Shown one piece after another: positions 27,826 through 32,000 of a DNA stretch of 32,000 nt (within the stretch, counting starts at the first letter, position 1; each line of letters begins with the position of its first letter). The position numbers were made by a program, and so were the translations under genes. Below the pieces are notes generated by a model that worked only from the letters and a program-made list of their open reading frames with translations, made no database searches and had not been told where the DNA came from. Source of the stretch: Geotalea daltonii FRC-32 (GTDB taxonomy: Bacteria; Desulfobacterota; Desulfuromonadia; Geobacterales; Geobacteraceae); NCBI RefSeq assembly GCF_000022265.1, contig NC_011979.1, positions 750,001 to 782,000 of the forward strand, written 5' to 3'.

Positions 27826-27880
27826 GGAGTAAGGGGTGAGGGCTGAGGTGAAAAACCCGCCTTGCCTCCTCACCCCTCAC
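27823..27880. repeat. GTGAGG-type heptamer arrays forming a hairpin between trxB and comM
   Basis: 27829-27842 pairs with 27867-27880: 14 positions with 12 Watson-Crick pairs, 1 wobble and 1 mismatch. The next two flanking positions (27843-27844 with 27865-27866) are mismatched. The left array is four period-7 units starting inside the trxB stop codon. Confidence 0.6.
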
Positions 27881-27897
27881 CGAAAGACGGAGGTTCC

Positions 27898-28635
27898 ATG
27901 CTTGCCAAGGTTCTCAGCAGTGCCCTCTTGGGTATCGATGCCATAATGGTAGATGTGGAGGTGGATATTGCCCAGGGACTGCCTCAATTTGCCACAGTCG
28001 GGCTTCCTGACGGGGCGGTGAAGGAGAGCAAGGACCGGGTAAAGTCGGCGCTGAAAAATTCCGGTTACGAGTTCCCCAATCGCAAGATCACCGTCAACCT
28101 GGCCCCTGCCGATGTGAAAAAGGAAGGGGCAGCCTTCGATCTCCCCATCTCCATCGGCATCATGGCTGCAACCGGGATCGTCAAGCCCGACCACTTGAAG
28201 AAATACCTGCTTCTGGGGGAACTGTCCCTGGATGGGGGTGTCAAGCCGGTTCGGGGTTGTCTTTCCGTGGCCGTGGCGGCAAAAAATGCCGGGCTTGCCG
28301 GCATTATAGTTCCCGAAGAGAATGCCCGCGAAGGGGCGGTGGTCGAGGGAATAGAAGTTATCGGTGTTTCCGAACTGGCCCAGGTGGTGGAATTCCTCAA
28401 CGGCGAACGGCCCATTATTCCCTATTCAGTAGATATTCAACAGCTCTTTAGCCAGAGCTCCGAGCACAACGACGACTTTTCGGAAGTGAAGGGGCAGGAA
28501 CACGCCAAGCGGGCGCTGGAGGTGGCTGCTGCCGGTGGGCACAATATTTTGATATTGTGGCCTATAAAACCCCAGATATCTGCCATATCATTTGCTGACT
28601 CATATTTTACAGAACTCGCTTTCAAGGCGGCTTAA
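27898..28635 (+). pseudogene. comM: 5' half of comM/yifB (Mg-chelatase-like, Lon-protease-like N-domain), interrupted. Family-like sequence ends near 28553 and the rest of the ORF reads through into foreign DNA
   Basis: MLAKVLSSALLGIDAIMVDVEVDIAQGLPQFATVGLPDGAVKESKDRV...FSEVKGQEHAKRALEVAAAGGHNIL is the standard ComM N-terminus. The expected Walker A (GPPGxGKT) and the whole AAA+ C-terminal half are absent. Confidence 0.8.
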
Positions 28636-28671: not shown

Positions 28672-29202
28672 ATGAAATTACCTACAGCATTTCTTCCAAT
28701 CATATTTTTCTGCTTTGTATCAATCGTTCAAGCAGCTTCTATCCCTGCAACTGGCGTTATAGAAGCATTCTTTAGCCCGAACGGTGGCTGCACCGATGCA
28801 ATTGTTCGTGAAATCTGCAATGCAAAGTCCGAAGTATTGATCCAAGCATATTCTTTTACGTCCGTCCCGATCGCTAAAGCAATAGTTCAGGCCAAGAAAC
28901 GTGGTGTGAAAATCGAAGCTGTCCTTGATAAGAGTCAGCGAACCGGCAAGTATTCTGCTGCTACGTTCCTAGTCAACGCCGGAATTCCTGTATTGATTGA
29001 CGACCAACACGCGATAGCGCATAACAAAATTATCATCATCGACCGCAATACGCTGATAACGGGGAGTTTTAATTTCAGTAAGGCCGCTGAGGAGAAGAAT
29101 GCTGAGAACCTTCTAGTCTTTAAAGGGAACACGCCCCTTGTATTGCAATACATCCAGAACTTCGATCATCATAAAAGACATTCTGAGCCTTACAACCGAT
29201 AG
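28672..29202 (+). CDS. nuc: Phospholipase D-family endonuclease Nuc with a signal peptide
   Basis: Signal peptide MKLPTAFLPIIFFCFVSIVQAA; a single HKD motif HNKIIIID followed by GSFNFSKAAEEKNAEN. Size and layout resemble plasmid pKM101 Nuc. Confidence 0.85.
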   Translation: MKLPTAFLPIIFFCFVSIVQAASIPATGVIEAFFSPNGGCTDAIVREICNAKSEVLIQAYSFTSVPIAKAIVQAKKRGVKIEAVLDKSQRTGKYSAATFLVNAGIPVLIDDQHAIAHNKIIIIDRNTLITGSFNFSKAAEEKNAENLLVFKGNTPLVLQYIQNFDHHKRHSEPYNR

Positions 29203-29280
29203 TTTAAGTGTAGTTTATATTGTGAACAACTTGACCATTCGCGTGTCATGGTTACTGTAACCGCAGTTGGTTAAGCAAAT

Positions 29281-29688
29281 TCAACGAAGAAAACTGCAAA
29301 GCATATCACCAAGTTTATCAGAATCTTTCAGTTCGCATTCCCAGATGACAAGCACGCTCCATCCTTGTGCGCTCAACGCTTTCTTGTCCAATATATCACG
29401 CTTGCGATTTCGCTCTATCTTGGTTTGCCAATATGTTTGATTGGTTTTCGGAATGCGAGAGCCACGAGGGCAAGTATGTCCATGCCAAAAACAGCCATGA
29501 ACGAATATGACTTTACGTCGAGCGGGTAGAACTATATCTGGACAACCGGGGAGGTCTGCACGGTGGATACGGAAGCGGAAACCCATTCGGTGAAGCATGG
29601 ATCTTACCGCCTTTTCAGGGGAAGTGTTTTTTCCGTGTACCTGACGCATGATTTCACTTCGCTTTTCAGAAGTGAACACGTCCGCCAT
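29281..29688 (-). CDS. vsr: Very short patch repair (T:G mismatch) endonuclease
   Basis: SEKRSEIMRQVHGKNTSPEKAVRSMLHRMGFRFRIH...PDIVLPARRKVIFVHGCFWHGH.C......PKTN..YW..KI..N..RD. ATG 29688 lies 1 nt after the upstream stop. The track start at 29829 is an overlapping extension. Confidence 0.9.
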   Translation of the reverse strand: MADVFTSEKRSEIMRQVHGKNTSPEKAVRSMLHRMGFRFRIHRADLPGCPDIVLPARRKVIFVHGCFWHGHTCPRGSRIPKTNQTYWQTKIERNRKRDILDKKALSAQGWSVLVIWECELKDSDKLGDMLCSFLR

Positions 29689-29689
29689 G

Positions 29690-30412
29690 CTATTCTTCTT
29701 CGTTGATTTCAGCTGCGAGTTCGCATCGACGCTCAGAAAGCCATTGAAGTCTTTTGGCCTGGGTGAGGAGAACCTTTCGCAAACCCTTTTGCACTTTGCG
29801 TTCGCAGATAACTTGGGCAAGTCTAGCAAGCGTCATAGCACGGCGGGCAATCCGTAAATCGGGATGATCACGCAATGCGCTTACTTCGTCGGTAACAATG
29901 CGTTCCTTATGGGATTGGGGAACTTCTATTTCTACGCGAGGAGCTGGAGGGTCTTTTTCGTTAAGAACGGCCCCGAAACGTGACTCGTTAAGCAGTTTTT
30001 GGAAGATATTATATTCCAAGGCGTCCAGATGTTCTTTTGCAACCTTTTTCGCGGCTTTGTCGTTCTTTCCGATTTCCTGAAACTGCGGCAAGGGCCATAC
30101 TTCGATATAGCACACTTCAAATGGGTCGAGAACGTTCATCGCTACTGCGTCAGTTCGCTGGTTGGTTAGATGGCGGCGGATGCGCGTTCTAAGCTGTTCG
30201 TTGGTTTGCCCGACATAAATCGGTTCCCCATCATAGTCATAGAAGGCATACACGCCCCATATATAATTTCCTAGCTTGGCCGGAGTTTCACCAGAGACGT
30301 CAACCACTTTATCGAGAAAACTGGTAAGCGCTTCGCGAAGATGTTTAGTCTCAAAAGGTAATTCAGCTATATCTAAGGTAGGTGGTCTGAAATCATGTTG
30401 TTCTTCTGGCAT
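29690..30412 (-). CDS. GIY-YIG nuclease-domain protein, candidate restriction endonuclease of the adjacent methyltransferase
   Basis: WGVYAFYDYDGEPIYVGQTNEQLRTRIRRHL...YIEVW...EYNIF...LNEK fits GIY / YIG / R..H / E / N spacing. ATG 30412-30410 shares one base with the dcm stop TGA 30414-30412. Confidence 0.65.
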   Translation of the reverse strand: MPEEQHDFRPPTLDIAELPFETKHLREALTSFLDKVVDVSGETPAKLGNYIWGVYAFYDYDGEPIYVGQTNEQLRTRIRRHLTNQRTDAVAMNVLDPFEVCYIEVWPLPQFQEIGKNDKAAKKVAKEHLDALEYNIFQKLLNESRFGAVLNEKDPPAPRVEIEVPQSHKERIVTDEVSALRDHPDLRIARRAMTLARLAQVICERKVQKGLRKVLLTQAKRLQWLSERRCELAAEINEEE

Positions 30413-31557
30413 CAGGCAGCGCACCTCATAGCGGATTTATTTGCATTCAAAACTTGCTCAATGATGTTTTTTGCGATATGGCGCACCACTGGAACCGCTA
30501 CACCGTCTCCGGCAAGGTGATACGCATCGTTATATTTCTCAGGCAAATGGTAACTTTCTGGCAAACCCATCAACCTGGCTGCCTCTCTGGGTGAGAGCAA
30601 GCGTGTCTTGACTTTATTGCCTTCGACCAAGATGATGATTTGCCGACTCGAACCGCCTGAAGGAGTTCTCAGGCATCCCGCGATATCATCGAAACGTACT
30701 TCTGCGCGCTGCCGTTTTATGCCTTCCTTGTCCTTTCGAGTGCGTTTATAGATGGTGCCGACAACGCGCTTTCCAGCTTTCTTCGCTTGGCTGAGCTTTT
30801 CAAGATTGATTGGCGACATCATACCGATTATGCGATTCGTTTCAAAAGGTGTGTGCCATTCAACGCCTTTCGGCTCATTCTCTACCATGTCCGAAAATGT
30901 CGTCGTGCGCGGTTTGGGAACAGGCAGATTCCACCATAACCATGATGCCCTGGCAGTCTCGGAAAGTAAATCGTAAGAAAGCCCGAGTGCGTCTGGATGC
31001 CAGCGTGGATCAGGAGCCCCAACAAGACGTTTTGGTACTTCTAACGTATTATGTATTGCAATTATGAATAGGCGAGGACGGCTATGCGGAAGAAAAAGAA
31101 CCGCGTCTATCACCATGGGACCACACCTATACCCGGCTTTAACCAGTTCTTCAATGATAATGGATAAGTCTTTTCCGTCGTGGCTCGTTACGGTACCGTA
31201 GACGTTTTCAAGGATAATTGTTTTCGGTGCGCGGCCTTCTTTCCGCAGCTTAGTTATCACATTCCAAAACGGCCAAAACGCTCCTGAACGTTCCCCGGCA
31301 ATACCTGCACCGTTACCGGCAAGTGACAAGTCTTGGCAAGGGAATGACGCCCAAGTTAAATCAGCCGTGCCTAGAAGCTGGGAGGTTTGGATTTTTGCGA
31401 CGTCTTCCACGACAAAATGATCATTTCCACGAAAATAAGTGCGGTAAGAAATAGCTTTTTTCGGGTCAAAGTCGTTGGCAAAAACGCACTCCCACCCCTT
31501 TCCAAGCCCAATTCTTGCCATTCCTCCGCCTGCAAAAAATTCATAAAAGGTTTTCAT
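30412..31557 (-). CDS. dcm: DNA (cytosine-5)-methyltransferase
   Basis: Motif I FFAGGGM, motif IV SFPCQDLS, motif VI ILENV, motif VIII HSRPRLF, motif X GDGVAVPV. Confidence 0.92.
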   Translation of the reverse strand: MKTFYEFFAGGGMARIGLGKGWECVFANDFDPKKAISYRTYFRGNDHFVVEDVAKIQTSQLLGTADLTWASFPCQDLSLAGNGAGIAGERSGAFWPFWNVITKLRKEGRAPKTIILENVYGTVTSHDGKDLSIIIEELVKAGYRCGPMVIDAVLFLPHSRPRLFIIAIHNTLEVPKRLVGAPDPRWHPDALGLSYDLLSETARASWLWWNLPVPKPRTTTFSDMVENEPKGVEWHTPFETNRIIGMMSPINLEKLSQAKKAGKRVVGTIYKRTRKDKEGIKRQRAEVRFDDIAGCLRTPSGGSSRQIIILVEGNKVKTRLLSPREAARLMGLPESYHLPEKYNDAYHLAGDGVAVPVVRHIAKNIIEQVLNANKSAMRCAA

Positions 31558-31627
31558 ACACGGCCACCCCTTTTAAAGCGAATAATATACCAAAAAACCA
31601 AATGAAATGGTATCCAATTTAGTTGTG

Positions 31628-32000
31628 TTATAATTCCAGCCCTAGTTTTTCGGCCTCTTTATTCGGCAACCATTTCATAAACTTGCCACATTCTGTGCAA
31701 ACTACCTTGTAGCGTTTGATTTTTTCAAAGTTGGGAACGTAATTTATAGTTTGATGTTTGCATTCGATTTTTGGCGGGGGTACATATACAGCATCAATGA
31801 GAAAATCTGTAAGCGACACTCGCTGCTCTAATCTTCTCATAGAAATGAATCTATTTGTGCAATCTCCTCCGCCACGAGCCCATTTTTCTTGGAAATAAGG
31901 CAATAAAACAGTTCCAGACGGGAGAAGATACCCGGCATATACACAACCCGGAAAATCTTTTTTCACAAACAGGCGCTTTTCGATTTCTTTCAGAGAGTAT
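31628..32000 (-). CDS. Hypothetical protein, 5'-partial (the frame is open to the window edge), with a C-terminal CxH-x18-CxxC motif
   Basis: The track ORF starts at GTG 31966, but I translated the same frame upstream (..YSLKEIEKRLF-V-KKDFPG..) and found no stop up to 32000. I recognised no family. It lies 70 nt upstream of dcm on the same strand. Confidence 0.5.
   Translation of the reverse strand, partial: YSLKEIEKRLFVKKDFPGCVYAGYLLPSGTVLLPYFQEKWARGGGDCTNRFISMRRLEQRVSLTDFLIDAVYVPPPKIECKHQTINYVPNFEKIKRYKVVCTECGKFMKWLPNKEAEKLGLEL

Follow-up and report, generated by a model that had tools for sequence, protein, structure and literature searches.

The window analysed here, the whole stretch of 32,000 nucleotides from Geotalea daltonii FRC-32 (NC_011979.1, positions 750,001 to 782,000), carries on its minus strand three tightly packed genes, as read from the list of open reading frames (ORFs) and the sequence: dcm, a GIY-YIG nuclease gene and vsr. 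In the favoured reading, to which we assign a probability of about one half, the GIY-YIG protein is an alternative restriction endonuclease (REase) with the specificity of the neighbouring methylase, and dcm-GIY-vsr is a restriction-modification (R-M) unit of the form methylase, REase, Vsr (M-R-V). The arrangement is not a matter of chance, since in 78 of 80 loci, all from different species, a dcm homologue is the neighbour of the nuclease gene. The operon has the following layout:

30412..31557, minus strand: dcm, C5 cytosine DNA methyltransferase of 381 amino acids (aa), ATG at 31557, TGA at 30414-30412
30410..30414, minus strand: TGATG stop/start overlap, base 30412 common to the dcm stop and the GIY-YIG start
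29690..30412, minus strand: GIY-YIG nuclease of 240 aa, ATG at 30412-30410, TAG at 29692-29690
29281..29688, minus strand: vsr, very-short-patch T:G mismatch endonuclease of 135 aa, ATG at 29688, TGA at 29283-29281

An initial annotation had described three minus-strand genes with almost no spacing, a one-base overlap of dcm and the middle gene within TGATG, and a single nucleotide between the middle-gene stop and the vsr ATG. The packing was recovered from the ORF list and the sequence, the overlap and the 1-nt gap from the sequence. An alternative in-frame GTG at 30424 would extend the GIY-YIG product to 244 aa, and a Shine-Dalgarno-like GAGG lies about 10 nt 5' of the GIY-YIG ATG, within dcm. 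Scans of 28.4-32 kb for promoters, terminators and repeats yielded nothing that exceeded the shuffled expectation.

The 240-aa protein matched the GIY-YIG family PF01541 (E=1.6e-8; 35.1 bits, gathering cut-off 22.6), and the hallmark motifs ascribed to it in the initial annotation were all present (GVYAFY, IYVGQT, LRTRIRRH). An AlphaFold2 (AF2) model was built from a 41-sequence alignment and reached a predicted local distance difference test (pLDDT) of 83.8 and a predicted template modelling score (pTM) of 0.82. The N-terminal helix of the model (LPFET..LR) is conserved; next come the three-stranded GIY-YIG core (about residues 50-160) and a long helix, and residues 175-236 form a helical hairpin at the C-terminus. 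The structure check that had been suggested for the fold thus turned out positive: the top Foldseek match in the PDB was the N-terminal GIY-YIG domain of UvrC (1yd6, probability 0.99, template modelling score (TM) 0.60 on the target). The similarity to UvrC is confined to the catalytic core of about 90 residues, whereas the C-terminal half of UvrC is absent, the genes around it are different ones, and the NCBIfam uvrC model, with a cut-off of 285 bits, scored 12.6. Residues Y55, Y66, R77, H81, E133 and N151 were invariant in 80 of 80 homologues; the protein is therefore predicted to be, almost certainly, an active nuclease. By their spacing and their place in the model, E133 and N151 would be the catalytic Glu and Asn. 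The C-terminal region had been proposed to be helical and basic; the AF2 model agrees with the helices, while the basic character of the last 80 residues is only mild (isoelectric point 8.8, 16 K+R versus 14 D+E).

For the GIY-YIG protein, the PHROG collection gave no significant match, and the best scores in PADLOC were PDC-S14 (E=0.003) and UzuA (E=0.015). Viral fold matches of the model were phage GIY-YIG endonucleases, and PD-T4-3 and Hpy188I appeared among the Foldseek matches, both non-significant; the PD-T4-3 enzyme, specific for 5-hydroxymethylcytosine, is present in PDB entries of the year 2026. Relatives bear generic names in the sources ('GIY-YIG nuclease family protein' or 'hypothetical protein'). 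A literature search found no paper about the family, and the papers on PluTI (PMC2875022) and on a Polaromonas plasmid (PMC6015842) contain nothing on this nuclease.

A word-indexed search retrieved 7047 homologues, an exhaustive search 607 cluster representatives at 50% identity, and among the matches listed for one-genome-per-species contigs at least 587 relatives were confirmed (587 of the first 600 pattern matches). Hosts include Alpha-, Beta- and Gammaproteobacteria, Geomonas, Verrucomicrobia and Acidobacteria, as well as Actinobacteria, there on plasmids of Arthrobacter, Curtobacterium and Mycobacterium and on chromosomes of Streptomyces and Micromonospora. Linkage was counted in 80 GIY-YIG-centred genome loci from different species. 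The dcm homologues found beside the nuclease gene in 78 of them share 51-62% identity with the dcm product of the window, 35% in one case; the two remaining loci have less than 260 nt of upstream sequence each and are cut at the contig end. The possibility named in the initial annotation, that homologues are never linked to methyltransferases, is contradicted by these counts. An overlap of 4 nt between the dcm stop and the GIY-YIG ORF recurs in some two dozen of the homologous loci. Pairwise identities of the two proteins correlate (r=0.71); by this correlation and the counts above, the nuclease gene is both adjacent to and co-inherited with the methyltransferase gene, in the manner of type II R-M systems. 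Methylases of only 35-37% identity, from Verrucomicrobia and from Arthrobacter and Mycobacterium plasmids, are still partnered by a GIY-YIG gene, and the divergent methylase whose sequence was read (locus L039) retains the motif RFDD..GCLRT..GGSSRQ. The commonest form among the 80 loci is the dcm-GIY pair without vsr or a further nuclease gene of 283 aa that is treated below; vsr follows in about a third. Micromonospora has dcm-GIY-vsr in exactly the order seen here, and elsewhere the GIY-YIG gene and dcm are divergent. Flanking genes are unrelated in most loci, and the pair resides on plasmids as small as 9.6 kb, i.e., the distribution is sporadic and mobile. Decayed copies with a broken nuclease and an intact methylase were seen on Rhizobium pRL11 and a Mycobacterium plasmid. 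Split methylases beside an intact GIY-YIG gene (L019, L038, L058; long-read assemblies or metagenome-assembled genomes) were judged likely indel errors and not used.

The methylase matched PF00145 (E=8e-48) and TIGR00675 (146 bits, cut-off 101), in PADLOC the models PDLC00028 (532 bits) and MTase_II PDLC03243 (325 bits), and motifs I, IV, VI, VIII and X were read in the translation as FAGGGM, FPCQDLS, ENV, HSRPRLF and GDGVAVPV. The target-recognition region is conserved across 76 homologues, which implies one specificity. Similarity to solved structures was solely the generic one of the catalytic region to M.HhaI and M.HaeIII, thus which sequence is methylated is not inferable from them. The vsr product matched TIGR00632 (157 bits, cut-off 98), PF03852 (E=3e-31) and the PADLOC Vsr model PDLC03397. 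A C5 methylase followed by Vsr in one operon is also the arrangement of E. coli dcm-vsr and of methylase-linked vsr genes of Neisseria (PMC12907096), whereas the window has the GIY-YIG nuclease in addition between the two genes. In Caulobacter, the 5-methylcytosine (5mC) methylase ScmA is solitary and VsrA is not linked to the methylase gene (PMC12907096); membership of ScmA in the present methylase family could not be shown.

The methylase family aligns over its full length with the PADLOC model PDLC00028, named 'DruM2' for a Druantia type II methylase (532-542 bits; window and L088:3859-5001). An assignment to Druantia type II was rejected: the methylase matches the DruM model, but the four neighbouring proteins scanned match no DruF, DruG or DruE. 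A related island (L081) is free of Druantia genes, and the window is visible only to position 32000.

Under the favoured reading, the three genes would form a self-contained, horizontally mobile R-M unit for 5mC. The Dcm-type enzyme would methylate one fixed sequence, and the GIY-YIG protein, as an active metal-dependent endonuclease, would most likely cut this same sequence when it is unmethylated and thereby confer a restriction phenotype. The overlap of its start with the dcm stop suggests that the nuclease is probably translated in a manner coupled to, and after, the methylase, and such a methylase-first synthesis would protect a new host during establishment of the module. Vsr is expected to nick T:G mismatches that arise by deamination of 5mC in the site, and in this way the module would limit its own mutagenic cost. 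Tandem and divergent gene orders are both usual for R-M pairs. Linkage, co-evolution, the presence of both layouts, a ribbon-helix-helix (RHH)-like ORF upstream of dcm in relatives and mobility resemble the behaviour of R-M modules and support the reading. The decayed copies in which the nuclease is broken and the methylase intact speak for it indirectly.

This upstream ORF encodes 70-110 aa, often lies 5' of dcm and overlaps it (L007:5450-5722, L088:3645-3866, L155:3530-3856), and is absent from the window. Its sole family match was a weak one to BrnA-antitoxin (E=0.06); the RHH-like character was read from the sequence, and the product could be a controller. The absence of a controller stated in the initial annotation therefore holds for the window and not for many of the relatives. 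In 16 of the 80 loci (L033:4048-4866 and 15 others), a further ORF of about 200 aa without Pfam match lies upstream of dcm and is read in the opposite direction; it may be another accessory gene of the module. Some actinobacterial relatives of the nuclease are larger, with 374-414 aa (P0284, P0298, P0301, P0388), and combine an N-terminal domain, read as helix-turn-helix (HTH)-like, with a low-complexity linker and the GIY-YIG body.

Several observations weigh against a role of the GIY-YIG protein as the REase of this unit. GIY-YIG REases are known but few, namely Eco29kI, Cfr42I and Hpy188I, and Eco29kI and Cfr42I are the precedent for the fold as type IIP/IIF REase (PMC4081073). With Eco29kI and Cfr42I (CCGCGG) the window shares a small GIY-YIG nuclease gene beside and overlapping a C5 methyltransferase gene on mobile DNA. 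Different from these systems are the gene order, M then R, and two conserved elements particular to this protein, the N-terminal helix and the C-terminal helical hairpin. No similarity to any PDB chain, Eco29kI included, was detected at E<=10 with phmmer or with the 41-sequence profile, and the first 50 matches of Foldseek do not include Eco29kI. Hpy188I (TCNGA) is likewise a compact GIY-YIG REase and was found as a weak structural match (3oqg), but with probability 0.06, E=1.5 and TM 0.20-0.25 the match is non-significant, and no sequence relation was detected. On the sequence, profile and Foldseek searches, membership in the Eco29kI/Cfr42I or Hpy188I families was rejected, and the likeness to the three enzymes drawn in the initial annotation does not detectably reach beyond the fold. 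The GIY-YIG protein also matched no REase, homing-endonuclease or Vsr model of PADLOC. Palindrome avoidance did not single out a recognition site: in 1.12 Mb of DNA from host loci no C-containing 6-bp palindrome was strikingly avoided, the lowest observed/expected ratio being 0.46 for CTCGAG, with 0.67 for CCGCGG. An HTH-fused relative in Actinosynnema pretiosum (L179/L180 5001-6125) has no methylase within 5 kb.

A further objection comes from a second nuclease candidate of the same methylase family. An ORF of about 283 aa lies between dcm and the GIY-YIG gene, overlapping both, in 23 of the 80 GIY-YIG-centred loci. Its product matched the PADLOC model PDLC03501 ('Type II restriction enzyme', REase_II) over the full length with 415 bits and has 3151 homologues (examples L011:6095-6958 and L088:5001-5852). 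Matches in Pfam, NCBIfam and the PDB sequences were not obtained, and its AF2 model had no significant Foldseek match. A pattern D94...D108-x-K110 is invariant and looks PD-(D/E)xK-like; the protein may be an unrecognised fold or a very divergent PD-(D/E)xK enzyme. Conversely, a metagenome scan with the 283-aa profile provided a set of 80 loci centred on this gene, and 24 of them also contain the GIY-YIG gene (13 downstream in tandem, 8 upstream divergent, 3 convergent after vsr). Plain dcm-283aa-vsr units, with no other nuclease gene in the available sequence, are common (about 22 of the 80). Of these loci, 9 have a distant GIY-YIG paralogue of 25-34% identity, 6 have the 283-aa gene twice, the additional copy being divergent, and 2 have a DUF4928 protein. 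DUF4928, a protein of 310 aa, takes the slot of the GIY-YIG gene in operons of the order small ORF-dcm-283aa-DUF4928-vsr in Xanthomonas, Agrobacterium and Novacetimonas (L084, L085, L088, L090, L100) and matched the PADLOC REase_II model PDLC03543 with 132 bits, where the GIY-YIG protein matches none. One methylase is in these operons accompanied by two REase-like genes. A homology of DUF4928 to the GIY-YIG or the 283-aa protein was considered and rejected, as hhalign indicated no relation, and the literature search came upon DUF4928 in one unrelated paper.

The methylases of all these nuclease variants have the same target-recognition region as that of the window, with 52-55% identity in the dcm/283-aa/vsr units. 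In our interpretation, several nuclease families without relation to each other serve a single methylase specificity, in operons that mix and match them. The dcm/283-aa/vsr unit is the direct sister system of the module in the window: methylase family, target-recognition region, Vsr, the small upstream ORF and mobility are common to both, whereas the window lacks the 283-aa gene, of which tblastn found no trace, and has the GIY-YIG nuclease as the sole nuclease of its kind. Units that are 89% identical in nucleotides exist with and without an adjacent GIY-YIG gene. In loci with all three genes, the conservation of the GIY-YIG protein (0.745) equals that of the methylase (0.746) and that of the 283-aa protein is 0.642; both nucleases being intact and the GIY-YIG protein as conserved as the methylase, simple redundancy is argued against. 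Either nuclease can be lost, as an IS256 disrupts the 283-aa gene on a Sphingomonas plasmid and the GIY-YIG gene is degraded on Rhizobium pRL11. Since the 283-aa protein forms M-R-Vsr units of its own, often beside the GIY-YIG gene, the REase of this methylase family is not necessarily the GIY-YIG protein. The R-M interpretation of the initial annotation is partly supported, by the fold, the methylase linkage and the mobility of the module; a relation to the known GIY-YIG REases was not detected, and no PADLOC REase model matched. If the GIY-YIG protein is the REase in the window, two non-homologous enzymes would cover one specificity, this protein here and the 283-aa REase found with the methylase family in other genomes, and operons with both nucleases could have arisen where homologous methylase genes recombined.

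A Z1-domain helicase-like protein, listed in PADLOC as 'Type II helicase domain protein', is encoded beside several dcm-283aa(-GIY)-vsr units (L086:1586-3601, L100, L116, L131, L161, L178). On an Arthrobacter plasmid (L093), an AIPR family protein is encoded about 2.4 kb upstream of dcm.

In a tentative alternative, which we regard as possible at a clearly lower level than the restriction reading, the GIY-YIG protein would be no classical REase but a novel type of nuclease dedicated to the methylase, recruited by one 5mC methyltransferase family with or without a true REase. It might perform a second incision or excision at deaminated 5mC together with Vsr, clear damage caused by the methylase, or serve as a non-redundant second restriction effector beside the 283-aa protein.

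Unlikely, yet of some weight, is a role apart from restriction, in which the GIY-YIG protein would handle the consequences of 5mC methylation, for instance by a second incision with Vsr or by processing trapped methylase-DNA adducts or lesions caused by the methylase. In that case the window would contain two repair nucleases and a methylase that lacks its REase, with restriction being the task of the 283-aa enzyme elsewhere. A repair function fits the coexistence with the 283-aa gene and Vsr under strong purifying selection, the optional presence beside near-identical dcm-283aa-vsr units, the lack of a match to the PADLOC REase models and the HTH-fused relatives without a methylase within 5 kb. 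The dcm-GIY overlaps resemble the arrangement of E. coli dcm-vsr, which is co-transcribed as one operon (PMC12907096). The best structural match, the 3'-incision domain of UvrC, also points to repair, but UvrC is the commonest GIY-YIG structure in the PDB. The commonest form, dcm-GIY without Vsr or the 283-aa gene, is hard to reconcile with such a role, and the pair behaves as mobile cargo in unrelated contexts rather than a vertically kept housekeeping pair. A mismatch- or adduct-specific GIY-YIG enzyme of this kind is not known. Strict linkage would be needless for a repair factor, as illustrated by Caulobacter VsrA, which is unlinked to its methylase (PMC12907096). A role outside restriction nevertheless stays alive on account of the stable two-nuclease loci, the missing REase model match and the methylase-free relatives.

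The free choice of position and orientation around the same methylase gene and the presence/absence polymorphism beside 89%-identical units would also be expected of a selfish, free-standing homing-type endonuclease with a target in or next to the methylase gene, spreading by cleavage of locus copies that lack the GIY-YIG gene and by its transfer into them upon repair. Many GIY-YIG proteins are homing enzymes, and the viral fold matches were GIY-YIG endonucleases of phages. Such an origin is nevertheless improbable. In I-TevI-type homing enzymes, a long linker joins the catalytic domain at the N-terminus to a DNA-binding domain of its own, whereas the present model is a compact single globule (pTM 0.82), and the group I intron endonuclease model TIGR01453 scored 15 bits against a cut-off of 56. 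The gene is part of an operon with dcm on a chromosomal island, no significant PHROG match and no intron or phage setting was found, and the tight stop/start overlap indicates integration into the operon. The pairing persists at 35% methylase identity, at which a nucleotide target would not be kept. Decaying homing genes are usually much less conserved than the GIY-YIG protein is.

Loss of restriction is a common mode of decay in R-M systems, and the slot after the 283-aa gene often holds a GIY-YIG, DUF4928, 283-aa paralogue or ATP-binding protein; the idea that the GIY-YIG protein works only as one part of a two-component or two-step restriction enzyme, with the 283-aa protein or an equivalent nuclease as partner, and that the window is a decayed remnant with methylation and Vsr and without restriction, is nonetheless highly improbable, because plain dcm-283aa-vsr units are common and the 283-aa enzyme therefore needs no partner, most proteobacterial loci, and some of Actinobacteria, have dcm-GIY and no 283-aa gene, the GIY-YIG gene is intact in loci lacking the 283-aa gene, with invariant catalytic residues and conserved dcm overlaps, and the window bears no tblastn trace of a lost 283-aa gene.

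The module of the window is cargo of a small integrative island of the serine-recombinase type inserted in comM, a competence gene. The island junction lies at about 28560, inside comM/yifB; the GC content is 0.57 before about 28.5 kb and 0.44-0.49 beyond. The features around the operon are:

27862..28635, plus strand: truncated comM/yifB, ChlI domain complete, Mg_chelatase AAA+ domain only with positions 1-28 of 207
28672..29202, plus strand: PLD-family Nuc/NucT-like nuclease of 176 aa, PF13091 E=9e-26, last island gene, convergent with vsr
28741..32000, no strand assigned: stretch common to a mobile island elsewhere, with PLD, vsr, GIY-YIG, dcm and CoiA_nuc genes, 86% nucleotide identity over 3.27 kb to L081-L083
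31628..32000, minus strand: 3' part of a CoiA_nuc-domain gene running off the window end, 70 nt upstream of dcm

In L081, the closest relative, the island is situated within a split radC gene and carries a large serine recombinase of 620 aa, a resolvase and a CoiA_nuc protein. The PLD-family nuclease occupies the same position in L081-L083; NucT models scored up to 65 bits, under their cut-offs, and the N-terminus is hydrophobic and signal-like. On Methylocystis plasmids, too, the GIY-YIG gene is followed by a PLD-like gene (L098; tblastn gave weak matches in L052, L055 and L074). In L082, dcm is preceded by a CoiA_nuc protein of 273 aa, and the fragment in the window shares 87% identity with residues 151-273 of it. 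This protein has a Cys-rich tail, occurs only in the closest island relatives and matched no PADLOC model.

If the GIY-YIG protein is an REase, the family would represent a third and very widespread lineage of GIY-YIG REases, with more than 7000 homologues in hundreds of species, and a candidate for a new reagent and structural model. If it is not, bacterial 5mC would be linked to a nuclease function that has not been described, with bearing on the question why so many apparently solitary cytosine methylases persist. The methylase family pairs a single specificity with as many as three unrelated families of nucleases, frequently with two of them at once, which makes it useful for studying the exchange and stacking of nucleases in R-M systems.

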